Shown here piece by piece: positions 384 through 51,095 of a DNA stretch of 64,000 nt (its first letter is position 1; every line of letters begins with the position of its first letter). The DNA comes from Bacilli bacterium. Lineage in GTDB: Bacteria; Bacillota_I; Bacilli_A; RFN20; CAG-826. Location of the stretch: contig JAFSOD010000004.1 of assembly GCA_017447165.1 (NCBI GenBank), forward strand, positions 179,267-243,266, read 5' to 3'. A program made the position numbers and the translations under genes. The notes under the pieces were generated by a model. That model was not told where the DNA came from and ran no database searches. It saw only the letters and a program-made list of their open reading frames with translations.

Positions 384-1355
384 TTATAAGATCTCCCAAT
401 AGCCAAATCTTTTGCCGTTAATTCTTTTGATTTTATTATTTTTAACCAAGGTAGCAGTGACGTTTTTAATGGTTCGTGGAGATACTCCAATTTTATTTGC
501 TAATTCATCGATGCTTATTTTTGGATTTGCTTTAATTAATTCGACAACACGCAGCTCTCTTGGTAAAGGTGCATCATTCTTCCTATCAATGCTGATACGT
601 AAATCTCTATTTCTTAATGAGTTATGTTCGTTAAGAAGTAAATTTCTTAAAAATAAAATCAAATAGGATTTGTCATCATTGATCCCTTTTCCAATGAATC
701 TAAAGTTCGCTCTCACCAAGGCGTTTCTAAAATACCACGCATTTTTAGCAAAGACATCATTAGTAACATCGAAACCCAATCTTCTTAAATATTTGATAAA
801 GAATACCGCAGTAGTTCTAGTGTTGCCTTCTTGAAATGCATGAATCTGCCAAAGATTTGAAACGAAGGTTGCTAAATGTTCGATAATTTCATCTTTTGAT
901 AAACCAATATAATTAAATTTTCTTTCAGAATCAAAATCGTATTCTAAAGTCGATTGAAGTTCATGATAATCGCCATAAATTACAGATCTTCCATCAAGAA
1001 CCCATTCCTTTTTAATATAATTAAAATCTCTTAATTTTCCAGCGTGATTAAACACACCATCAAACAAACGTTTATGAATACTAACCAGCTGACCTACTGT
1101 AAATGTGAAAGAATCATCTGAAATGATTTGAGCAATTCTATTTGAAACAATGTCGGCTTCTTCAGTTCTTTCATCTTCGCCAGGTTTATTTTCATAATAT
1201 GAATTAATAATTTTGTCTAACTCATCCAAAGATATCTTTCCATTAATATATTTGTCTGCTTGTGACAAAAAATAAGATGAGTTTTTTAATCCATCAACAT
1301 CTTGTAGTCCGATTCCTGTTTCTATAAGGTATTTATTAGAATATTTATTTTCCAT
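384..1355 (-). CDS. Fic/Fido-domain protein with C-terminal winged-HTH; non-canonical active-site motif
   Basis: 323 aa. Fido core motif HAFQEGNTRTTA matches HxFx(D/E)GNGRxxR except for G->T and final R->A. C-terminal LIKANPKISIDELANKIGVSPRTIKNVTATLVKNNKIKR looks like an HTH. Confidence 0.8.
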   Translation of the reverse strand: MENKYSNKYLIETGIGLQDVDGLKNSSYFLSQADKYINGKISLDELDKIINSYYENKPGEDERTEEADIVSNRIAQIISDDSFTFTVGQLVSIHKRLFDGVFNHAGKLRDFNYIKKEWVLDGRSVIYGDYHELQSTLEYDFDSERKFNYIGLSKDEIIEHLATFVSNLWQIHAFQEGNTRTTAVFFIKYLRRLGFDVTNDVFAKNAWYFRNALVRANFRFIGKGINDDKSYLILFLRNLLLNEHNSLRNRDLRISIDRKNDAPLPRELRVVELIKANPKISIDELANKIGVSPRTIKNVTATLVKNNKIKRINGKRFGYWEIL

Positions 1356-8990: not shown

Positions 8991-9665
8991 ATGGAAAAAG
9001 TAAGAACTATTCTATTGAATCGTTCTGCCTATGCAGATAATGATCAAGAAGCTGATGAGCTAAGAAGCTATTTAAAAGACCACCAAACATTTGTGGTTAA
9101 TTTAATGTCTTCTCCAGGAGCGGGTAAAACCACTACTCTAATTAAATTAATCAACATTCTTAAGAAAGATTTTAAAATTGGGGTAATGGAAGCGGATATC
9201 GATAGTGATGTTGATGCAGTTAATGTCGCTAAAGAAACTGGAGTGACATCTATTCAATTACACACTAACGGAATGTGTCACTTAGATGCTGGCATGACTA
9301 AAACTGGACTAGACGGCATTAACTTCAATGATTTTGATCTTATTTTCTTAGAAAATGTTGGTAATCTTGTTTGCCCTGCCGAATTTGATACCGGGGCCTC
9401 TATGGATATGATGATTCTTTCTGTCCCTGAGGGCGATGATAAGCCAATTAAATATCCACTGGTGTTTGAAAAATCAAAACTAGTGCTCATAAATAAGATC
9501 GATGCTCTTCCATATTTCGACTTTAATATAGAGAAATGTATTTCTAATATTAAATACCGTAATAAAAATGCTACAATAATACCGATAAGTGCAAAAACAG
9601 GTAAAAATATCGATTTAGTCGCTAAATATTTCAAAGATATAGTTTCAAATTGGAGGAATAGCTAA
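8991..9665 (+). CDS. hypB: HypB-type nickel-incorporation GTPase (copy 2)
   Basis: Walker A SPGAGKTTTL, NGMCHL, ENVGNLVCPAEFD and NKID. I prefer the ATG at 8991 (preceded by gatgagg) over the track start at 8919. Its stop overlaps the next start (TAATG). Confidence 0.85.
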   Translation: MEKVRTILLNRSAYADNDQEADELRSYLKDHQTFVVNLMSSPGAGKTTTLIKLINILKKDFKIGVMEADIDSDVDAVNVAKETGVTSIQLHTNGMCHLDAGMTKTGLDGINFNDFDLIFLENVGNLVCPAEFDTGASMDMMILSVPEGDDKPIKYPLVFEKSKLVLINKIDALPYFDFNIEKCISNIKYRNKNATIIPISAKTGKNIDLVAKYFKDIVSNWRNS

Positions 9666-12562
9666 TGCCAGAGAAATGTAAAAAACCAGAAGTCACATCA
9701 AAATATGATGGTGAAAAAGACTTTCATAAGAATTATGCGAAATTAGGTAAGAAAATTACTGATATTGTCCCACACAAATTATTTGGGGTGAAAAACACTG
9801 ACCCTGAATATTGGGGACTTAGAGAAGTATTAAATGAAGATCAAGTTAATTTCTTGCTTAAATTCAAACAAAGAAAATGGTATTTGATTGAAGACTTAAT
9901 TAAAAAGTTTAAAGGTCAATTTGAACCTGCTAGAGTGCAACAACTTTTAGATGAACTTTCTTATATTGGTTTTATTGAATATGACTATGGAGATAATTAT
10001 GCGGAAGATCATCCAATTAAAGACGCTCCAAAAATCAAAAGATATAGAATGTCTTATTTCGTCCCTGGTTCAGCTGAATTAATGAATTCCTCTATTGATA
10101 GAATTGAAAAAAATCCTGCAGTTACTAACTTCTTTGAAAGAATGACATTTGTTCCACTCGCGGGTATTACTGAAATGATTGGTCCAGGTGGTAACGGTAT
10201 TGGTATGCACACCATCCCAGTAGAAAAAGCTATTCAAGGAGAACAAAAATCTCTTCCAGTAGAACATATTTCCCACTGGTTAAATAAATATGAAGGTCAT
10301 ATCTCCGCTGGTATTTGTTCTTGTAGAGCAAGTAGAGCAAAATTAGGAGATGGATGTATCGACGATGTCGATGACTGGTGTATCCAAGTTGGTGATATGG
10401 CGGACTATACTGTTGAAACAAAACGTGCCCACTATATCACAAAAGAAAGAGCCTTAGAGATTCTTGAACTCGCTGAGAAAAACGGATTCGTTCACCAAAT
10501 TACTAATATCGACGGCAAAGACCATATCTTTGATATTTGTAACTGTGATGTTAAAATCTGTAACGCTTTAAGAACATCAATGTTATTTAACACTCCTAAC
10601 TTATCTAGAAGTGCTTATACCGCTAAAGTCACTACTACTAACTGTGTGGCGTGCGGACAATGTGTTGCTAACTGTCCTGCTGGAGCGGTTAAACTCGGAC
10701 AAAAATTATGTAAAGGCGACGGCAAAGAACAAAAATATCCAAGTCAACCATTACCAGATAAAATCCACTGGGGTAAATATGCTTGGGATGAAAATTATAG
10801 AGACACTGCTAGAGCCAGTGATACCTATCCAACAGGTACCGCTCCTTGTAAAGTGGCTTGTCCAGCTCATGTCCCAGTTCAAGGCTATTTAAAGATGGCT
10901 CATGAAGGAAGATATAGAGAATCCTTAGCATTAATTAAAACTCAAAACCCATTCCCAGCAGTCTGTGGTAGAGTCTGTAATAAACGCTGTGAAGATGAAT
11001 GTACTAGAGGAAAAATCGATCAAGCCGTCTCTATTGATGCGGTCAAAAAATTTGTCGCTGATTTAGAAATCAACTCTAAAGATAGATATATTCCTGAAAA
11101 GATTATCCCATCAGTTCACGGGGAATTTGACGAAAAAATCGCCATTATTGGAGCAGGTCCAGCAGGATTATCTGCTGCCTACTATTTAGCAATCGCAGGC
11201 TTTAGACCAACTGTCTTTGAAAAAAATGAGAAGCCAGGTGGAATGTTAAGATATGGTATTCCTTCTTATAAATTAGAAAAAGATGTAATCGATGCCGAAA
11301 TCGATGTCATCAAAGCGCTTGGTGTTGAAATCAAATGTGGAGTCGAAGTGGGTAAAGACGTCACTATCGAATCCTTAAAGAAGGAAGGCTATAAAGCATT
11401 CTATATCGCGATTGGCTGTCAAGGCGGAAGAAGACCTGGTGTTAATAATGACACCGCTAAAGGTACAGAGATTGCTGTCTCTTATTTAAGAGAAGCGCTT
11501 GATAAGCAAAAAGAATTTAAAGGCAAAGTGGTCGTCGTTGGTGGCGGTAACGTCGCTGTTGACTGTGCTAGAACTGCTCATAGATTAAAAGCAGAATCTG
11601 TTTCTATGTACTGCTTAGAAGATAGAGACCACATGCCTGCTAGTAATGATGAAATTAGAGAAACTCTTGAAGAAGATATTTCTATCAATAACTCTTGGGG
11701 ACCAAAAGAAGTTCTCGTTAACGAGAAAGGTGAAGTTAAAGGTATTGTCTTTAAGAAATGTACATCCGTTACTGATAAAGATGGTAAATTCAATCCTCAA
11801 TATGATGAAAACGACACTATTACCGTGGAAGCTGATAAGATTATCTTTGCTATCGGTCAAGCCATTGAATGGGGCGACTTATTAAAAGGCACTAAAGTTG
11901 AGTTCTGGCATGGCAATTATCCATTCGCTGATAAAGTCACATATCAAACTAACGATGATGATATCTTTGTAGGTGGCGATGTCTTCACCGGACCAAAATT
12001 TGTTATTGATGCAATCGCCGCTGGTCACGCTGTTGCTGACGCTTTAGCAAGACACGTAAGACCAAATGCTCACCCAACCATCGCCTTTAATAAGAGAGGA
12101 TTCACTCCACTTAATAAAGATGATATTACTCTTCCAGGATATGACGATGCTGGTAGACAAGAAGAAGGTATGGATGAGTCCATCGACTATAAGAATAGCT
12201 TCAAAGATGCTCATAAGACTTTAACTGAAGAGCAAGTGAAGATCGAAACTGGTAGATGCTTATCTTGTGGTGCCGCATTTGTTGATCCACATAAATGTAT
12301 CGGTTGTGGTATTTGTACCACAAAATGTGAATTTGATGCGATTCACTTAGTAAGAGACCATCCAAAAGCTTCTACTATGAGATTCGCCGAAGATAAAGTT
12401 ACTGGCTTACTTAAATATGCTGTACCAAGATGGTTCAAGATTATGTTTAACGCTGGTAGCAAAGAAGCCAGAATGATGAGAAAGAAACGTAAAGCATGGA
12501 AGAAACACTACAAAGTAGCAAAGAAGACCATGCCAGATACAGGTAACGCCGTCGATGCATGA
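9665..12562 (+). CDS. multidomain Fe-S flavoprotein: unknown Cys-rich N-domain, ferredoxin motif, GltD-like NAD(P)H/FAD oxidoreductase and C-terminal 2x[4Fe-4S] ferredoxin
   Basis: 965 aa. Motifs: CSCRASRAKLGDGC...CNCDVKICNALR, CVACGQCVANCP, GltD-type CKVACPAHVPVQ...CGRVCNKRCEDECTRG, dinucleotide folds IAIIGAGPAGLSAAYYLA and VVVVGGGNVAVDCA, and CLSCG...CIGCGICTTKCEFDAI. Confidence 0.75.
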   Translation: MPEKCKKPEVTSKYDGEKDFHKNYAKLGKKITDIVPHKLFGVKNTDPEYWGLREVLNEDQVNFLLKFKQRKWYLIEDLIKKFKGQFEPARVQQLLDELSYIGFIEYDYGDNYAEDHPIKDAPKIKRYRMSYFVPGSAELMNSSIDRIEKNPAVTNFFERMTFVPLAGITEMIGPGGNGIGMHTIPVEKAIQGEQKSLPVEHISHWLNKYEGHISAGICSCRASRAKLGDGCIDDVDDWCIQVGDMADYTVETKRAHYITKERALEILELAEKNGFVHQITNIDGKDHIFDICNCDVKICNALRTSMLFNTPNLSRSAYTAKVTTTNCVACGQCVANCPAGAVKLGQKLCKGDGKEQKYPSQPLPDKIHWGKYAWDENYRDTARASDTYPTGTAPCKVACPAHVPVQGYLKMAHEGRYRESLALIKTQNPFPAVCGRVCNKRCEDECTRGKIDQAVSIDAVKKFVADLEINSKDRYIPEKIIPSVHGEFDEKIAIIGAGPAGLSAAYYLAIAGFRPTVFEKNEKPGGMLRYGIPSYKLEKDVIDAEIDVIKALGVEIKCGVEVGKDVTIESLKKEGYKAFYIAIGCQGGRRPGVNNDTAKGTEIAVSYLREALDKQKEFKGKVVVVGGGNVAVDCARTAHRLKAESVSMYCLEDRDHMPASNDEIRETLEEDISINNSWGPKEVLVNEKGEVKGIVFKKCTSVTDKDGKFNPQYDENDTITVEADKIIFAIGQAIEWGDLLKGTKVEFWHGNYPFADKVTYQTNDDDIFVGGDVFTGPKFVIDAIAAGHAVADALARHVRPNAHPTIAFNKRGFTPLNKDDITLPGYDDAGRQEEGMDESIDYKNSFKDAHKTLTEEQVKIETGRCLSCGAAFVDPHKCIGCGICTTKCEFDAIHLVRDHPKASTMRFAEDKVTGLLKYAVPRWFKIMFNAGSKEARMMRKKRKAWKKHYKVAKKTMPDTGNAVDA

Positions 12563-24956: not shown

Positions 24957-25583
24957 TTAATATTCTTCTTTCTTTTTCTTTTTGGTTTTCGCTATTACTA
25001 ATATTTCGATAGTTTTTGCTCCTTTGCTTCTTAATAAATCGATTGAAGTTAAAAGTGTGCTTCCTGTAGTCATAATGTCATCTACTAACAATATCTTTTT
25101 ACCCTTCATTGATATATTTTCATCTATTTCTAAAACATCATTTATCTTATGTCTTCCAAGTGAAGATTGATCAGACTGTTTATGCGCTGTTTTCTTCTTC
25201 AAAATGGGTAATTCTTTAAGCTTTAAACTCTCAAAAATCGCTTTTACGTGATTAAAACCACGCCGCTCATCATCAATGTGATAAGAAGGTATATAGACGA
25301 TATGATAACCATGATATTTTAACTTCAAAAAAGTTAGATATCGATCTAAGAAAACATCCTTTAATTCATAGTCATAACAACCTTTAAATTTATAGATTAA
25401 TTCCTTTATAAAATCTGTATATTCATAGACGGCTGTCCCTTTTATATTTCCTATTTCGAAAGACACAAATTTAGCCTGTAATTTACTAAAACAATCTCCA
25501 CATAAAATGTTCTTCCTTTTCAATAAGTTATATATGGAATTATCCGTTATTCTTTTAAAGCAAATTTTACAGAAATTATCCAT
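24957..25583 (-). CDS. comFC: ComFC/ComF-family protein (phosphoribosyltransferase-like)
   Basis: 208 aa. N-terminal Cys pairs CKIC...CGDC and PRTase motif ILLVDDIMTTGSTL. Overlaps the comFA stop by 8 nt. Confidence 0.85.
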   Translation of the reverse strand: MDNFCKICFKRITDNSIYNLLKRKNILCGDCFSKLQAKFVSFEIGNIKGTAVYEYTDFIKELIYKFKGCYDYELKDVFLDRYLTFLKLKYHGYHIVYIPSYHIDDERRGFNHVKAIFESLKLKELPILKKKTAHKQSDQSSLGRHKINDVLEIDENISMKGKKILLVDDIMTTGSTLLTSIDLLRSKGAKTIEILVIAKTKKKKKEEY

Positions 25584-26775
25584 TATCTAATGCCTCATTA
25601 TTCTTCTTTATTTCTTCTATAGATTCTTTAATATCGGAAGTCACTTTTTCGCATAGATAAATTACTTCTCCTTCTGGCGCATCAGCCTTTCTTCCCACTC
25701 GTCCTGCGATTTGAATTAAAGTGCCTTTTTCATATATTTTATGGTCAGTTTGACTGATAATTACCTGCAAATTCTTTACAGTTACCCCTCTTTCTAGTAC
25801 TGATGTAGTTACTAAATATGAAAATAAGTGATTACGAAATTCTTCGATTATTTCAGATCTATAATTCCTTTTAGAATGAACATAATTTCCACCTTTAACA
25901 AATAAGGAAATTACTCTATAGATTTTCTCACATAAATTAATGGTGGGAGCAAAAACAAATACAGGTTTGTTATTTTTCTTATATTCCTTTATTTTTCTAA
26001 TTAAATATAAGTATTGAAATAGCGTATTTCGTTTAACTATTTTGGGTATTGGAAGAGGATGACGATGAAAACGAACTTCTAATCTTAATATATCTTTGTT
26101 ATCTCCATGGAAATGATCTATTACTTCTTTAGATGGAGTGGCGGACATCATAACATAATGACCACACAAAGATTGATAGAACATGCTATGTAATGTTGGA
26201 TCATCTTTAAACGGAAAAGCGTCTATCTCATCTAGGATAATTAAAGAGAAATAATTCTTGTATCTATATAGTTGATGTGTGGTTAGGACAACTATATCGC
26301 CTTCTTTATCTTTTGTGTGCCCTCCATATAAGCAAACCACTTTGTTATATTTAAATATTTCTCTTAACCTATTATGTAATTCTATTGCAACATCTCTTCT
26401 AGGGAGCGCAAACGCGACCTTATCGCCACAATTAATTGCATATTTAATAATGTTGAGGCAAATTTCAGTCTTTCCTGATCCACATACAGCAAAAACAAGA
26501 CTATCTATTCCTTTCTTATAGTTCTCCACTAACTTATCGGATAATTCTTTCTGTTCTGGAGATAGCTCGTACTCTAAATGAATAGGTGCTTTCTTGGGAT
26601 AAGATGGCTTATGTTCTACTTCTTCACCACGAAAAGAGATACACCTACGACAATAGGGTTTGCCATTAAGATATCCAATTGAATGTATATCGGTGTTACC
26701 ACAAATAGGGCATTTATAAGTTTCTATGTTGCAACATCTCCTTTCTTTTGATTTAATATTTATACAACCTGTCAC
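25576..26775 (-). CDS. comFA: ComFA competence DNA-uptake helicase/translocase (only full-length copy)
   Basis: 399 aa. N-terminal 4-Cys motif CPICG...CRRC, Walker A AVCGSGKTE, DEID box, and the VTTSVLERGVT and QIAGRVGR helicase motifs. The start is uncertain: the track uses GTG 26775 inside a hairpin, and the position homologous to the ATG of fragment F2 is ATA (26727-26725). Confidence 0.85.
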   Translation of the reverse strand: MTGCINIKSKERRCCNIETYKCPICGNTDIHSIGYLNGKPYCRRCISFRGEEVEHKPSYPKKAPIHLEYELSPEQKELSDKLVENYKKGIDSLVFAVCGSGKTEICLNIIKYAINCGDKVAFALPRRDVAIELHNRLREIFKYNKVVCLYGGHTKDKEGDIVVLTTHQLYRYKNYFSLIILDEIDAFPFKDDPTLHSMFYQSLCGHYVMMSATPSKEVIDHFHGDNKDILRLEVRFHRHPLPIPKIVKRNTLFQYLYLIRKIKEYKKNNKPVFVFAPTINLCEKIYRVISLFVKGGNYVHSKRNYRSEIIEEFRNHLFSYLVTTSVLERGVTVKNLQVIISQTDHKIYEKGTLIQIAGRVGRKADAPEGEVIYLCEKVTSDIKESIEEIKKNNEALDNG

Positions 26776-26802
26776 GCAGAGCTAAATAGGCTCAGACAGG
26801 TT
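26766..26802 (-). other. 8-bp-stem hairpin between cassette ORF A1 and the comFA 5' UTR
   Basis: aacctgtc (26766-26773) pairs with gacaggtt (26795-26802). The loop holds a nested gagc/gctc pair. No U-run follows, so it is not a canonical terminator. Confidence 0.5.
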
Positions 26803-26803
26803 T

Positions 26804-27127
26804 TTATTTTAACTTAACAGGTTTTCTTCTTTTTATAATTCTTATTGTCAATCTATCATCAGGGTGTATTTTCATACCAATCAATTCTCTTGATCCAAAA
26901 TGCTTACGTTTACCCTGAACAGGTCTATTGTTCACAAACTAAGCCTTAACTTTATTTTCGGTAGGATGTTTTAGTTTTGTCTGATGTCTATGTTGAGATG
27001 TTCCTGTGATAACAGCAATATAAATGTTCTTTTTATCATTCTTTAAAACAATTAAACCAGGGTGTTTGTTTACTATATAAAATTTTCCTTTTTCTAAATG
27101 TTTGTTATAAATCTTTTTCTTACTCAT
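26804..27127 (-). pseudogene. cassette ORF A1 (small basic protein superfamily), interrupted by an in-frame TAG at 26939-26941
   Basis: The 62-aa ORF is MSKKKIYNKHLEKGKFYIVNKHPGLIVLKNDKKNIYIAVITGTS.... After the TAG, the same frame continues FVNNRPVQGKRKHFGSRELIGMKIHPDDRLTIRIIKRRKPVKLK, which aligns with the C-terminal half of A2. Confidence 0.7.
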
Positions 27128-27142
27128 ATTTCCTCCTTTCTG

Positions 27143-27424
27143 TTATGTATTTCGTGTTTTTGGGGATCCACATACGGCAAAAACTAAACTATCAATTCCT
27201 TTTTTATAATTCTCTACCAGCCTATCTGATAATTCTTTTTGCTCTGGAGACAACTCATATTCAAGATGAATAGGTGCTTTCTTTGGGTAAGATGGTTTAT
27301 GTTCTACTTCTTCGCCTCGAAAAGAGATGCATCTACGACAATAAGGTTTGCCGTTTAGATAGCCAATAGAATGAATATCAGTGTTGCCACAAACTGGACA
27401 AGTAAATGAAAGCTGGTTATCCAT
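27143..27424 (-). CDS. F1: open 93-aa comFA N-terminal fragment (Zn-ribbon region up to a disrupted Walker A, GSPKT)
   Basis: 77 of 79 aligned residues are identical to ComFA, yet 32 of those codons differ synonymously. It ends GSPKTRNT* inside the conserved linker, 15 nt before the ATG of A1. Confidence 0.8.
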   Translation of the reverse strand: MDNQLSFTCPVCGNTDIHSIGYLNGKPYCRRCISFRGEEVEHKPSYPKKAPIHLEYELSPEQKELSDRLVENYKKGIDSLVFAVCGSPKTRNT

Positions 27425-27821
27425 TTTTCTTGCCTTTCTTTTTATGTTTTGATTTAATACTGGTAGATGGTGTGCGCCCTTTCTGGGTTAAAGCTTCATT
27501 CGTTAGCTTTCCACCATTTTTTCTTTGCTCTTTAATTAGTGAAACATATACATCTATTTTTATTTCATCGGAAACTACTAAACGATACTTTTTAAGTTCT
27601 TGTCCTCTATGTCGGAGTTTATCTTTTCTTATATACTTTCTGAAATAAGATTTCTTGTCTGAATTGGGATTTGGATTTACATCAAATTCTTCATAATTTC
27701 CAGTTACAGTTGGACTATCAGTTATTTCGATATTTTCCCATGTTCCATCTTCTAGAACACTGATTTCTATTGATGGGTGGTATTTAGTTCTTTTGTTTTT
27801 AAATATTTTATATTTATTCAT
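27417..27821 (-). CDS. cassette ORF B1, 134-aa basic protein of unknown function
   Basis: MNKYKIFKNKRTKYHPSIEISV...ITDSP...VNPNPNSDKKSYFRKYIRKD...RGQ. Homologous to B2. Its Lys-rich tail is encoded by what is comFA 5' UTR in other copies, and its stop overlaps the F1 start (ATGGATAA). Confidence 0.7.
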   Translation of the reverse strand: MNKYKIFKNKRTKYHPSIEISVLEDGTWENIEITDSPTVTGNYEEFDVNPNPNSDKKSYFRKYIRKDKLRHRGQELKKYRLVVSDEIKIDVYVSLIKEQRKNGGKLTNEALTQKGRTPSTSIKSKHKKKGKKNG

Positions 27822-27840
27822 GTATCAATTCCTTTCTATG

Positions 27841-28113
27841 TTATGGATTTGTTGTTTTTGGTGATCCACATACGGCAAAAACAAGACTATCTAAGCCTTT
27901 TTTGTAATTCTCAACTAACTTATCCGATAGTACTTTTTGCTCTGGAAACAGTTCGTACTCTAAATGAATAGGCGCCTTTTTAGGGTATGATGTTTTGTGT
28001 TCCACTTCTTCACCTTTAAAAGAGATACACCTACGGCAATAAAGTTTGCCGTTCAACATACCAATTGAATGAATATCAGTGTTACCACATACAGGACATT
28101 TATAAGGTTCCAT
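27841..28113 (-). CDS. F2: open 90-aa comFA N-terminal fragment (GSPKT end), the only copy with ATG at the conserved start position
   Basis: MEPYKCPVCGNTDIHSIGMLNGKLYCRRC...AVCGSPKTTNP*. Eight amino-acid differences from ComFA over the shared region. Confidence 0.75.
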   Translation of the reverse strand: MEPYKCPVCGNTDIHSIGMLNGKLYCRRCISFKGEEVEHKTSYPKKAPIHLEYELFPEQKVLSDKLVENYKKGLDSLVFAVCGSPKTTNP

Positions 28114-28148
28114 ATTGAATTATCACCTTTCTTTTGATTTAAAATAGC

Positions 28149-28219
28149 CATAGTCGTGGTCATCACTAGTTTGATGCCGGCCCACAGGAAGCTGTGTAGC
28201 TCCATTAACGGGGCTTTTT
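28149..28219 (-). repeat. E1: ~70-nt structured element, copy 1
   Basis: Aligns base for base with 28981-29050. It contains two 5-bp hairpins: catca/tgatg, and cacag/ctgtg at 28183-28196. Confidence 0.7.
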
Positions 28220-28305
28220 ATTTTTACGGTTTTATAATATTTGCCATATATTGGGCATTTATAAGTTTCTATATTGCGTTACCTCCTTAATTTTGTTTTA
28301 ATATT
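28202..28305 (-). pseudogene. deletion remnant: comFA 5' UTR plus 7 codons fused to the last ~14 codons of an A-type cassette ORF
   Basis: Minus strand reads aaggaggtaacgcaat ATA GAA ACT TAT AAA TGC CCA ATA TAT GGC AAA TAT TAT AAA. The comFA start (IETYKCPI) runs into the A2-like tail (PIYG.YYK...), with the junction at about 28246-28256. Confidence 0.65.
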
Positions 28306-28360
28306 TGTAGTTAGTGCTATCGGTTAATCCGACCAAAGCCCAAGTTTAGTAGGTTTTACA

Positions 28361-28657
28361 CTAACTTTTTTTGTTGTTTAAATAGTTTTCAATTTCAATT
28401 AAATCATCTTCTGATAGGTTGAATTTTTCCAAAAGTTGACCTCTTGTTTTAATTGGATCCTTTCTTAAATACTTTCTAACATATGCTTTATCATTTCTTT
28501 TTGGATTCGGATTTACTTTAAGCTCAATATATCTGTTCTTCTTAGTGGGGCTTGAAGTTACTTCTAAATTAATCCAAATAGTTCCGTTTGAATCTACTTC
28601 TATGCTTGGATGATTTTTTGTTTTTCTGTTTTTATAGAATTTGAATTTTTTGCTCAT
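28361..28657 (-). CDS. cassette ORF B2, ~98-aa basic protein of unknown function
   Basis: MSKKFKFYKNRKTKNHPSIEVDS...VTSSP...VNPNPKRNDKAYVRKYLRKD...RGQ. I prefer the ATG at 28657 (SD aaaggagg) over the track start at 28687. Confidence 0.7.
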   Translation of the reverse strand: MSKKFKFYKNRKTKNHPSIEVDSNGTIWINLEVTSSPTKKNRYIELKVNPNPKRNDKAYVRKYLRKDPIKTRGQLLEKFNLSEDDLIEIENYLNNKKS

Positions 28658-28696
28658 TTGACACCTCCTTTTTGTTATGGTTTTCAAGTCTTTGGT

Positions 28697-28945
28697 GATC
28701 CTTATATCGCATAAACTAAATTATCTATCCCTTTCTTATAGTTCTCCACTAACTTATCCGATAGTTCTTTCTGCTCAGGGGGACAACTCATACGATAAGT
28801 GAATTGGGGCCTTACGATATGAAGGCTTATGTTCCACTGCTTAACCCTTAAAATAGATACATCTTCGGGAGTAATGTTTGCCGTTTAGGTATCCTATTGA
28901 ATGAATACCAATGTTTCCACAAACTGGGCATTTATATGTTTCGAT
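28697..28945 (-). pseudogene. F3: decayed comFA 5' fragment
   Basis: Reads IETYKCPVCGNIGIHSIGYLNGKHYSRRCIYFKG* with GAA->TAA, loss of one Zn-ligand Cys (C->S), and a later 1-nt insertion (tccccctga). Confidence 0.8.
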
Positions 28946-28980
28946 ATTGCATCATCTCCTTAAATTTGATTTAATAATGT

Positions 28981-29050
28981 CATGGTCGTGGTCATCACAA
29001 GTTTGATGCCGACTCGTAGGTAACTACGCAGCTCCATTAACGGGGCTTTT
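28981..29050 (-). repeat. E2: ~70-nt structured element, copy 2 (overlaps the stop of A2)
   Basis: Same architecture as E1. The hairpin cgtag/ctacg at 29015-29028 carries two compensatory base-pair changes relative to E1. Confidence 0.7.
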
Positions 29051-29441
29051 TTATTTTTTTGCGTTTTTTATAATAAGAACCGTAAATAGGATTACCTTTT
29101 TGTACTTTAATAATTAAATACATATCTTGGATGCTAAACGACATATCTGGATATTCTTTTTCTCCGTAATCATTTCTATCTCCTATAAAAGGTCTTTTCT
29201 TTATTAGCGATATTTCAACGTTACTATCGGTTGCATGTTTTAATTTGTAATATCCTTTTCTTAAACCTAGACGATCAAATTCTTCTTTGGTCATTGATCC
29301 AGTGATAATTGCATAGAAAGCTTTATCTTCATTATCAATTTTAAAAATTTGTCCAGGATGTCCACCTGGGCTACCATCTAAAACACGATAAAACTTGCCG
29401 ATTTCAAGTGTTATCTTGTGTTTTCTTTTCTTTTTACTCAT
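29037..29441 (-). CDS. cassette ORF A2, 134-aa basic protein of unknown function
   Basis: MSKKKRKHKITLEIGKFYRVLDGSPGGHPGQIFKIDNEDKAFYAIITGS...KKRPFIGDRNDYG...IQDMYLIIKV...KKRKKIKKPR. SD aaaggagg before the ATG. Confidence 0.7.
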   Translation of the reverse strand: MSKKKRKHKITLEIGKFYRVLDGSPGGHPGQIFKIDNEDKAFYAIITGSMTKEEFDRLGLRKGYYKLKHATDSNVEISLIKKRPFIGDRNDYGEKEYPDMSFSIQDMYLIIKVQKGNPIYGSYYKKRKKIKKPR

Positions 29442-29480
29442 ATTTTCCTCCTTTCTTGTTATGTTTTTAGTATCTTTAGC

Positions 29481-29603
29481 GATTCACATACCGCAAAAAT
29501 AATCTATCAATTCCCTTCTTATAGTTCTCCACTAACTTATCTGATAGTTCTTTCTGCTCTGGAGACAGTTCATATGAAAGATGAATAGGTGCTTTCTTAG
29601 AAT
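29481..29603 (-). pseudogene. F4: 5'-truncated, frameshifted comFA fragment (codons ~45-88)
   Basis: Reads KKAPIHLSYELSPEQKELSDKLVENYKKGID, then is frameshifted. At about 29603 its 5' end is fused to the truncated U5 ORF. Confidence 0.75.
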
Positions 29604-29727
29604 ATGAATGTTACTCTATGAAAAACGAAAACATTTCCTTCTTCATCAACGATATTTGCTGGGTGGTTGTTTTTTAAATAAATTCTGAAGTGCCTCCTGA
29701 AAGAACTATTTTTTGTTTTTGTTTCAT
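29604..29727 (-). pseudogene. U5: frameshifted and truncated remnant of a fifth cassette ORF
   Basis: ATG at 29727 after the conserved linker (aaatacataacataaaggag). Reads MKQKQKIVLSGGTSEFI*, then in another frame KNNHPANIVDEEGNVFVFHRVT, which matches the family HP-x-I core. Confidence 0.55.
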
Positions 29728-29892
29728 TTTTTCTCCTTTATGTTATGTATTTATTTCTTGTAGATCAGGGCGGCCTTTATTTTTTTATAGGTTTTCTCCT
29801 TTTATAATTGATAAAAAACTCCCTACATTATATATAGAGTGGCTTTCTTCATTTTTTTGTGAAAAAAAGTTTAATAAATCTTTATAGGTATT

Positions 29893-29935: not shown

Positions 29936-30373
29936 TTATTTTTCTAAGTCGTTAATCATCTCAACACGAGTTAAGTGTCTACCACCTTCAAATTCAGTGT
30001 TAAGGAAGATATCCACTCTTCTAAGAACATCTTCTAAAGCCATAAATTTTTGACCAAAGGAGATAACGTTTGCGTCATTATGTTGTCTCATTAATCTAGC
30101 AACTTCATCGTTATAGGCAATACCGCATCTAACGCCTTTGATTTTATTAGCCGCAATAGAGATACCCTCTCCACTAGTGCAGACAACAACACCAAATTGA
30201 CATTTTTTAGAAGCTACTTTTCTAGCTACTTCAGCGCCATATAAAGGATAATGGCAACTATCTAAAGAATAAGTACCAACATCAATTACTTCATGTCCTA
30301 ATTCTTTTAAATGTTCTGCGATCGCGTTTTTATATTCTAATCCGCCATGATCACTACCAACTGCAATTTTCAT
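29936..30373 (-). CDS. rpiB: ribose-5-phosphate isomerase B
   Basis: 145 aa starting MKIAVGSDHGG, with CTSGEGISIAANK. Typical RpiB/LacAB. Confidence 0.9.
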   Translation of the reverse strand: MKIAVGSDHGGLEYKNAIAEHLKELGHEVIDVGTYSLDSCHYPLYGAEVARKVASKKCQFGVVVCTSGEGISIAANKIKGVRCGIAYNDEVARLMRQHNDANVISFGQKFMALEDVLRRVDIFLNTEFEGGRHLTRVEMINDLEK

Positions 30374-50654: not shown

Positions 50655-51095
50655 TTATTCAATCACAGCAGGATGCTGTTTAGACATTAGTTCATTTGCT
50701 TGTTTCACTGAAAATACATGCATTCCACAATTCTTAAACCCTTTTTTATCATTTGTTACAATTGCATCAGCGAGTATTTCCTTTGCTGCAGTTATTTGAA
50801 GTTCATCCTCATAATCATTATTCTCGGAGTAAAGAGCTTCAATTGCTGCGTCTGCGCTTGTATCACAGATTTTACTTACAATATCATAAGTTTTAATTTG
50901 AATATCTCTAGAAAGATTACTGTCATGTAGCTTTTGTTGGGCAACATATCCGATATCTCTCATCGACATCGATGTAACATATATTTCGTTTCTTAATCGA
51001 TAACAATATTGGAAGAATAATCTAGCATCAATTCTACTTTCATCATTCCTAACAAAAAAATCTAAAAACACATTTGTATCAACTAAAAACCGCAT
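50655..51095 (-). CDS. PIN-domain toxin (VapC-like)
   Basis: 146 aa with MRFLVDTNVFLDF at the N-terminus and acidic residues spaced as in PIN domains (D...E...D..TND). Overlaps the upstream antitoxin gene by 13 nt. Confidence 0.75.
   Translation of the reverse strand: MRFLVDTNVFLDFFVRNDESRIDARLFFQYCYRLRNEIYVTSMSMRDIGYVAQQKLHDSNLSRDIQIKTYDIVSKICDTSADAAIEALYSENNDYEDELQITAAKEILADAIVTNDKKGFKNCGMHVFSVKQANELMSKQHPAVIE

Follow-up and report, generated by a model that had tools for sequence, protein, structure and literature searches.

Integrons hold co-oriented, mostly single-gene and promoterless cassettes at a fixed site, with the older cassettes lying farther away, and their cargo, often toxin or defence genes, is shared horizontally. 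To our knowledge they are essentially unknown in Bacilli and essentially a feature of Gram-negative bacteria. Here we describe a locus of related logic in a stretch of 64,000 nucleotides (64 kb; “the window”) from a Bacilli bacterium (assembly GCA_017447165.1, contig JAFSOD010000004.1, positions 179,267 to 243,266 of the forward strand). In the interval between the genes rpiB and comFA, 5' ends of comFA alternate with small genes, and we regard it as probable that this interval is an array of small mobile cassettes which were inserted successively at one point inside comFA. An initial annotation, made from the letters of the window, had proposed serial insertion at a fixed comFA site with restoration of the gene. 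We tested it against the window array and about 70 related rpiB-comFA loci (given L numbers below); the observation is confirmed, and the interpretation is supported by the relatives, by fixed junctions and by switches between alleles. The architecture, a junction that is fixed on either side of the cassette, polymorphism of presence and absence, horizontal spread and the independence of the ComFA N-terminus from its core are shown by the data.

The likeness to integrons is that cassettes of one gene each, all in the same orientation and with a common, precise boundary, vary between strains, are shared horizontally, lie farther out the older they are and carry what we read as toxin or defence cargo. 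The locus differs in that no IntI-type integrase is found beside the array or in the 64 kb and no attC-like hairpin at the cassette ends, and in that the insertion site lies inside a coding sequence, for which each cassette brings 84 replacement target codons.

Elements that carry an end of their target gene and so leave it intact, accrete in tandem and, where a member lacks a recombinase, can be moved in trans are known as tRNA/tmRNA islands, as staphylococcal cassette chromosome (SCC) and pseudo-SCC arrays at rlmH, and as streptococcal cis-mobilizable elements (CIMEs). The present locus resembles them, as the live comFA is intact, the old 5' ends are displaced and the 5' allele varies on the same core. 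Those elements range in size from kilobases up to tens of kilobases, as a rule rebuild a short 3' end and in at least some members encode an integrase, whereas the units described here are single-gene units of 0.45-1.4 kb, restore about 280 nucleotides (nt) of a 5' end including the translation start, and encode no recombinase.

Xer-dependent modules (pdif modules of Acinetobacter plasmids, integrative mobile elements exploiting Xer or IMEX) are small and recombinase-less, often carry toxin-antitoxin or single genes, and use short sites and a host enzyme. At the present junction we recognised no 28-bp dif-like site with XerC and XerD arms (two arms of 11 bp around a 6-bp centre), only a 7-bp imperfect inverted repeat (the dif of the hosts is not known, and no genome-wide search was made), and the site sits in the Walker A codons of a helicase, not at the terminus or at a plasmid dif. 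A further parallel is given by the orphan toxin/immunity arrays downstream of cdiA, rhs and similar polymorphic-toxin genes, in which a ladder of displaced gene-end fragments, each with a small cargo gene, arises as one end of the resident gene is replaced and is reshuffled by homologous recombination in the conserved fragment. The present locus is their mirror image: 5' ends are stacked upstream of a housekeeping competence helicase, and the replaced part is nearly invariant in protein while only the cargo varies.

In the literature on comFA as an integration site, on hotspots and defence, on toxin-antitoxin systems and MazF, and on cow-rumen-1, we found no description of such a locus. It matches no described system; an adjacent IntI and attC sites, which would mark an integron, and an element-encoded integrase, which would mark a gene-restoring element, are all absent. 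Arrays gained through one fixed site are known mainly from integrons. In these uncultured rumen Bacilli the integron-like logic is built from other parts, with neither attC nor an integrase alongside, and with a target inside a coding sequence that each cassette mends by its own 84 codons.

The repeated comFA 5' module and its insertion point

On the minus strand the genes follow each other as rpiB, a 3.2-kb interval, comFA, comFC and secA. The product of comFA has a DEAD/ResIII and Helicase_C core (Pfam) and an N-terminal Cys4 motif (CPxCG...CRRC), and comFC is its neighbour. ComFA, an ATPase that depends on DNA, is needed for DNA uptake in Gram-positive bacteria and has a conserved metal-binding motif (PMC9005727 and references therein). 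A profile built from the comFA 5' untranslated region (UTR) and first codons was scanned with nhmmer on the window interval and on the relatives. In the window it returned six module copies, to which one eroded remnant is added; the repeat finder and MAFFT agree, and the census of the initial annotation (the live gene, two open copies F1 and F2, a stub, and two decayed copies F3 and F4) stands. The copies are approximately 77-85% identical in nucleotides, far above chance. Each repeated module consists of about 32 nt of 5' UTR and 84 codons and ends in ...GGATC; the coding part had previously been taken as about 88 codons, which becomes 84 when counted from the conserved ATA/ATG start. By comparison of start codons across loci the apparent start of the window comFA is ATA (26725-26727), 7 nt after AAAGGAG. 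Many relatives have an in-frame stop two codons upstream of this position, and ATG, GTG or TTG are unavailable; other copies of the module have ATG at the ATA-start codon. The features of the locus, from rpiB to comFC, are as follows.

29936-30373 (-): rpiB, core gene flanking the array upstream
29813-29843 (-): hairpin at the rpiB-side edge of the array, GC stem with TATATAAT-like loop and T-run (locus comparison)
29763-29799 (-): eroded 3' end of a comFA 5' copy, about 37 nt, ending TGATC, weak match (alignment)
29727-29762 (-): oldest leader copy (repeat search)
~29609-29726 (-): U5, remnant of a C-type cargo gene (tblastn, 82% over C-type residues 2-34)
29481-29612 (-): F4, displaced comFA 5' copy, model positions 153-285, decayed (nhmmer 113 bits)
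29442-29480 (-): A2 leader (junction alignment)
29037-29441 (-): cargo A2, 134 amino acids (aa), MazF/CptN-like fold (fold similarity)
28977-29036 (-): 62-nt hairpin element after A2
28697-28976 (-): F3, displaced comFA 5' copy, decayed (nhmmer 236 bits)
28658-28696 (-): B2 leader (junction alignment)
28361-28657 (-): cargo B2, 98 aa, 96-97% nt identity to the copies in L019 and L034
28241-28304 (-): stub of a comFA 5' copy, 64 nt, model positions 3-66 (nhmmer 32 bits)
28146-28240 (-): tail remnant of an A2-type gene with the 62-nt hairpin element (alignment)
27863-28145 (-): F2, displaced comFA 5' copy, open (nhmmer 268 bits)
27822-27862 (-): B1 leader (junction alignment)
27417-27821 (-): cargo B1, 134 aa, MazF-like fold (fold similarity)
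27165-27447 (-): F1, displaced comFA 5' copy, open (nhmmer 264 bits)
27128-27164 (-): A1 leader, CCCAAAAACACGAAATACATAACAGAAAGGAGG... (junction alignment)
26804-27127 (-): cargo A1 (A superfamily), pseudogene, in-frame TAG at 26939-26941
26760-26803 (-): spacer between A1 and the live module, stem-loop ACCTGTC...GACAGGT (sequence inspection)
26477-26759 (-): live module F (5' UTR and 84 codons), part of the A1 cassette (nhmmer 291 bits)
25576-26727 (-): live comFA coding sequence, Pfam DEAD/ResIII and Helicase_C
24957-25583 (-): comFC, Pfam Pribosyltran, partner downstream of comFA

The left boundary of the cassettes is fixed to the base. In F1-F4 the similarity to comFA halts at ...TGTGGATC (GAATC in F4), and beyond it come CCCAAAGACACGAAATCCATAACAGAAAGGAG-like sequence and an ATG, which bears out the earlier reading that homology stops within the Walker A codons before a conserved linker; the linker, here called the leader, is 36-41 nt long. 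Taking 34 non-redundant displaced copies from many genomes together, all stop at one and the same base, GTTTTTGCGGTGTGTGGATC^CCCAAAGACACGAAATCCATAACAGAAAGGAGG (^ marks the insertion point), and most positions of the leader are 80-99% conserved. The 52 live copies continue as ...GGATC^TGGCAAAACAGAAAT, the GSGKTEI codons, and the live copy of the window also ends at GGATC^. The insertion point therefore lies after the second base of the Walker A serine codon: ...GTx TGT GGA TC ^ N GGN AAA ACN GAA AT...

The right boundary can be read from strains which share a comFA core (95-100% identical) and differ in their 5' allele, with 81-86% identity across its last 150 nt. In at least five strain-level comparisons the identity switches within 3-12 nt of GGATC^; these comprise the window against L008, L010 against L041, and L014, L050, L051 and L066, which display four alleles on one core. 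Between L051 and L066 the last mismatch is at -6 and is followed by 150 out of 150 identical bases, and a mismatch at -3 is seen both in L050 against L051 and in L010 against L041. The right end of the cassette thus coincides with its left end. As judged from these alignments both ends are precise, which favours a conservative, site-specific insertion.

Locus L072 is a case of cassette entry into a naive gene. A divergent 5' end of resident type (59% identical in amino acids, about 69% in nucleotides; a stop is present) is found at the native distance from rpiB, and a leader with an A3 gene adjoins it at GGATC^.

In both contexts, the cassette junction and the live site, the junction is bracketed by an imperfect inverted repeat of 7 bp with 15 nt in between, GTTTTTG-N15-CAAA(A/G)AC. 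An attC-like site at the junction was considered and rejected, as folding gave no consistent hairpin. There is no conserved hairpin at the cassette ends either; the hairpin element is limited to A2-type cassettes, and its terminator-like hairpin with T-run is antisense to the array (28198-28215 and 29030-29047 on the plus strand).

The displaced copies decay in place. About 13 of the 23 full-length displaced copies are open and about 10 are broken, and many others are truncated. The open ones make up 9 out of 28 copies adjoining the live gene, 2 out of 8 in second position and 0 out of 5 farther out, and eroded relics of 5' copy and leader are found at the rpiB edge of most arrays. The growth of decay toward rpiB indicates that new cassettes enter at the comFA-proximal end. 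In the window comFA is intact, with its displaced 5' ends upstream: the open reading frame (ORF) of F1 (27143-27424) encodes 93 aa with the C-terminal end ...AVCGSPKTRNT before the stop and that of F2 (27841-28113) 90 aa, while F3 is broken by stops and frameshifts and F4 is without its 5' half.

The small ORFs A1, B1, B2 and A2 of the initial annotation kept their positions, with the correction that A1 is no longer an intact gene. A1 was inactivated twice independently, by the TAG nonsense codon in the window and by an A-run frameshift near the gene start in L015 (~9610-9640), where the homologue has Ser at the TAG codon of the window. As no stop codon precedes F1, B1 reads into the F1 5' UTR: its last approximately 25 residues (27417-27495) are encoded by the 5' UTR and start region of F1, and its stop overlaps the F1 start. 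The stub had been described as fused to an A-type tail, and this tail is of A2 type, joined through the microhomology CCTATTT(GT/AC)GG. The remnant at 28146-28240 is the leftover of a deletion which also shortened the stub; the same fusion is present in L014 and L050. In general, array deletions use the microhomologies TGTGGA, TTGGAT and CCTATTTNNGG, or no obvious homology.

At the rpiB end, U5 was rightly read as a remnant ORF with a linker of its own and can be placed in the C family. It had been thought to have no comFA segment upstream; an eroded piece of about 37 nt, a weak match, occupies this place (29763-29799), and comparable remnants are found at the equivalent place in L009, L012, L044 and L045. 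The edge hairpin lies just downstream of the rpiB terminator and is kept in most related loci with compensatory changes in the stem (CCCTCT/AGAGGG, CCCCTA/TAGGGG, CTCCC/GGGAG). It could represent a second terminator, an attenuator or a hairpin that overlaps a promoter.

Array variability and horizontal movement

The relatives were gathered by searches with A2, B1 and ComFA, and the 5' module, rpiB and ten cargo types were mapped on all loci. They all come from uncultured rumen or gut Bacilli, with record labels Erysipelotrichaceae, Bacillales or Bacilli. The rpiB-comFA interval holds from zero to at least four cassettes in many orders and combinations, and no identical array is shared by all. 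Of the complete arrays, 14 hold a single cassette, 11 hold two and 5 hold at least three; L062 and L071 have an empty site. Strains with the same core genes can differ in what their arrays contain. All close A and B homologues whose contigs were fetched sit between rpiB and comFA, which counts for the initial interpretation.

At least ten cargo families occur, among them the small basic proteins A1-A5, B1, B2, C and D, and E with 330 aa. The spacing from the cargo to the downstream comFA 5' copy is specific for the type (A2 62 nt, A3 46, A4 87, B2 60), and the E cargo overlaps its downstream copy, which begins at model position 14. This type-specific spacing shows which parts belong together: the unit is leader, cargo, spacer and comFA 5' end.

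Genomes that share only 62-78% identity in rpiB and the comFA core carry the same cargo gene at 92-98% nucleotide identity. The near-identical tract always starts at the leader, 25-40 nt before the ATG, and never includes the upstream comFA copy, whose identity stays at the baseline of 77-84% and is not associated with the cargo downstream of it. In the A3 cassettes of L023 and L032 the tract runs from the leader through cargo, spacer and most of the 5' copy with 92-100% identity (30- to 40-nt windows), drops to 75% over the last approximately 35 nt of the copy, and falls to about 45% outside the cassette on both sides; the 5' copy of this cassette is displaced in L023 and live in L032.

The N-terminus of ComFA follows the cassettes and not the rest of the protein. 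In array-bearing genomes residues 1-88 (query numbering) are 88-99% identical to the window, whereas residues 96-386 fall to 46%. The native gene at the empty site of L062 shows 54% in the N-terminal part and 57% in the rest, and L007, with one A2-like gene and a native comFA, shows 50% and 51%. The closest relative, L008, has a ComFA core 97% and an N-terminus 88% identical to the window. The comFA N-terminus thus travels with the cassettes, independent of its core. The zinc-ribbon N-terminus of ComFA is a protein domain which circulates horizontally apart from the remainder of the protein.

All 5' copies differ mutually at approximately 20% of nucleotides and only at about 5-10% in protein, and copies within an array (0.787) are as different as those from different genomes (0.784). 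This excludes a recent local duplication and concerted evolution. The divergence fits a long-lived pool of cassettes in which the 5' module is kept functional by regular use as the live N-terminus.

Two observations on unusual loci are added. In L035 (7542-7812) rpiB is followed at once by a comFA 5' module of mobile type; no cassette lies between them, and the first approximately 30 codons of the module seem to contain a frameshift. A cassette may have been lost here, or the sequence may be in error at a contig end. In L007 and L077, which belong to distant lineages, a single A-type gene lies directly upstream of a native-type comFA, with neither fragment nor leader.

Proposed mechanism and competing explanations

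The precise and identical ends, the entry into a divergent gene and the lack of any co-transfer of the upstream copy are together an argument for conservative site-specific recombination. Under this mechanism a cassette would consist of the leader of 36-41 nt (CCCAAAGACACGAAATCCATAACAGAAAGGAG), one cargo gene, the cargo-type spacer and a replacement comFA 5' end. The leader would close the frame of the upstream comFA 5' end and provide the Shine-Dalgarno sequence of the cargo; insertion would fuse the 5' end of the cassette to the resident comFA body, so that the competence helicase stays intact and the former 5' end remains upstream and decays. The partners of the exchange would be a circular cassette, by its junction ...GGATC^CCCAAAG..., and the live site, with ...GGATC^NGGNAAAAC...; going outward from one cassette, the sequence expected across the circular junction is ...GTxTGTGGATC^CCCAAAGACACG... 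The array may be transcribed as a whole together with comFA, and each displaced 5' end may drive the expression of the next cargo gene. A promoter scan yielded fewer sigma-70-like sites than shuffled sequence, and no promoter was assigned.

No recombinase is found in the arrays of the approximately 70 loci, of which the long arrays L023 and L027 were examined. For the window, the earlier statement that the array and the 64 kb contain none holds: the six-frame translation has no motif of a tyrosine or serine recombinase, and Pfam gave none on the 10 unassigned window ORFs. The enzyme would therefore have to act in trans from another place in the genome, as happens with the cassettes of integrons and with Xer-dependent modules. 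The cassette proteins and the junction motif were unmatched in viral contigs, as were B1 in plasmid and A2 in phage records, which leaves no evidence for a phage or plasmid vehicle.

In its widest form, the proposal is an unrecognised Gram-positive, site-specific cassette system analogous to integrons, in which a host recombinase moves single-gene minicircles at the Walker A core (TGTGGATC) and the array serves as a shared bank of toxin or defence genes expressed with the DNA-uptake operon. We put this forward tentatively, with belief and doubt close to balance and doubt slightly the stronger. If true, it is the universal ComFA N-terminal domain carried by each cassette that keeps the competence machine unbroken. 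The locus touches on the conflict between mobile elements and natural transformation, as the element sits in a competence gene that it leaves working and from whose expression it probably profits. The locus also offers a defined 8-bp core and about 70 natural before-and-after examples for an enzyme hunt.

Several points weigh against serial site-specific insertion and the role given to its cargo. The enzymatic step is inferred, with neither a recombinase nor an excised circle nor an empty and an occupied site from the same population in evidence, and all sequences are metagenome assemblies. The inverted repeat at the junction is short, and single-strand folds of the junction (four of the sense and two of the opposite strand, z-scores -2.8 to +0.7) were significant in one of six tests. 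Over its first 16 nt the leader is similar to the codons that come after Walker A (AAAGACACGAAAT versus AAAACAGAAAT), a likeness that could be the relic of an original unequal crossover and not the arm of a recombinase site. In same-cargo pairs other than that of L023 and L032, the near-identical tract ends inside the 5' copy or contains a short divergent patch, and the linkage between cargo and 5' copy is weak past the first approximately 70 nt (identity excess +0.058, then about +0.01); both indicate that homologous recombination or gene conversion among the copies also shapes the arrays. Concerning the cargo, fold similarity is the sole basis for its function: Pfam, PHROGs, NCBIfam and PADLOC returned no family at E<=0.01 for the A, B, C and D proteins, A and B had no Pfam match at E<=1, PF02452 included, and no sequence match in the PDB. 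No antitoxin gene was found in the cargo operon, where the sole neighbour is a comFA 5' fragment that is often broken or absent.

The likeness of leader and post-Walker codons, together with the tracts that end inside the copy and the fading linkage, counts in favour of the main rival, in which the same cassettes spread without a dedicated recombinase. Here natural transformation and RecA recombination within the 5' copies and the leader would move the cargo, first entries would arise by microhomology-mediated (homology-facilitated illegitimate) joining where Walker A and the leader are alike, and the array would have been born from one unequal crossover in which the post-Walker codons met the 5' UTR of a gene that lay upstream in the ancestor. 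Both comFA and comFC are present in the hosts, array deletions do exploit microhomologies (TGTGGA, TTGGAT, CCTATTTNNGG), and the lone A-type gene before a native-type comFA in L007 and L077 makes an ancestral operon of such a gene with comFA plausible. What this route explains is the mosaic nature of the 5' copies and the likeness of the leader; it does not explain the fixed boundaries, with the left one at the same base in 34 of 34 junctions and never a co-transferred upstream copy, and the right one within 3-12 nt of the same base. The copies, moreover, differ at most third codon positions and offer RecA few long identical runs, and concerted evolution is accordingly not seen; the divergent resident gene of L072 yielded the same exact junction. 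We therefore hold the recombinase-free route to be unlikely, if clearly the most serious of the alternatives. An ancient local tandem duplication of a small gene with the comFA 5' end, whose products then diverged and decayed where they lay with no mobility at all (a birth-and-death gene family), would account for the one architecture and the invariant His shared by all small cargo families and for the constant boundaries of the repeat unit. It is already contradicted by array content that varies over the same core genes, by nearly identical cargo on divergent backbones, by within-array copies that are no closer than those between arrays and by empty sites with native N-termini, and it deserves hardly any belief.

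A different kind of alternative would have the 5' fragments kept for a function, either as zinc-ribbon peptides of about 90 aa, or a ComFA N-terminal domain, that neutralise or partner the MazF-like proteins in a pair resembling toxin-antitoxin systems, or as a stack acting as a switch of the comFA 5' end and of competence. F1 and F2 are open, as are more than half of the full-length displaced copies, the protein conservation of the 5' module (90-99%) exceeds that of the helicase core, the gene order, with a small ORF upstream and then a gene for a MazF-fold protein, is reminiscent of type II toxin-antitoxin operons, and A1 beside the live gene was inactivated in the window and in L015. Set against this, most arrays offer their first cassette no fragment upstream that it could use, the 5' module varies independently of the cargo type, and about half of the full-length displaced copies are broken, for which reason the antitoxin idea is retained as a minor rival of low probability. 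The switch, which the initial annotation had offered as its own alternative, finds no support: in the arrays mapped the fragments lie on one strand only, with no inverted arrangement. One may finally suspect the assembler of having concatenated strain variants of a single locus, given that the sequences are metagenomic and many contigs end within the locus, although such breaks are expected of a repeat-rich, polymorphic site. The copies are just about 80% identical and hence not collapsible repeats, multi-cassette arrays of the same grammar were assembled independently across several studies and hosts (L025, L029, L034, L043, L044, L057), and a gradient of decay toward rpiB is unexpected from stitched variants; an artefact is accordingly very improbable.

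Cargo proteins and further observations

In a joint alignment A1-A5, B, C and D have one architecture in common, marked by a T-x-S stretch and by an HP motif whose His is invariant, and A and B come out with the SH3-like barrel fold of MazF, Kid and CcdB. The window cargo is a set of small basic proteins whose fold is of the MazF/Kid/ToxN kind. The HP and T-x-S lie at the places which carry R-P and T-S in MazF; the difference is that the catalytic Arg would be replaced by His. Profile-profile comparison of A with B gave no signal, both alignments being of low diversity. The cargo differs from MazF/PemK/Kid as well as from ToxN/CptN/AbiQ, with no profile match, no antitoxin gene and no tandem RNA repeats; a scan with Tandem Repeats Finder for the tandem RNA antitoxin repeats of approximately 35-45 nt that precede type III toxin genes returned only trivial repeats of <=20 nt, which leaves no type III antitoxin array, and Rfam gave nothing at E<=1 on the window array. 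The E cargo, present only in relatives, is a YhcG/DUF1016 nuclease of the PD-(D/E)XK type (DUF1016_N E 6e-38, YhcG_C E 5.5e-52) and matches the PADLOC candidate defence family PDC-S02 with E 1.5e-113. The fold of the small proteins and the match of E suggest that the cargo is made up of toxin- or defence-type genes; another conceivable role is the binding of nucleic acid in connection with incoming single-stranded DNA.

The B family is a narrow one: of 1.84 billion representatives, 86 clusters belong to it. More distant relatives within the B/C family at L083 (4001-4291), L085 (4001-4321) and L081 (4001-4306) stand in contexts resembling mobile elements, two of them between large unknown ORFs upstream of Rep_trans, as in conjugative elements, and one in a block of small genes beside an HTH_3 repressor, as in prophages. 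Both contexts of this narrow MazF-fold family are tied to incoming single-stranded DNA.

Elsewhere in the window, a PIN-domain protein (50655-51095, minus strand) and a Fic protein with HTH (384-1355, minus strand) are ordinary toxin-type genes unrelated to the array.

Several related arrays contain the RNA motif cow-rumen-1 (RF02946), which is absent from the window array: L017 at 9677-9739, L029 at 9001-9063 and L014 at 9676-9737, all on the minus strand, with 56, 50 and 40 bits. It lies on the strand opposite to comFA, in a conserved non-coding insert of about 330-470 nt between the cassette gene and the next 5' copy, and this orphan Rfam motif thereby gains a genomic home.

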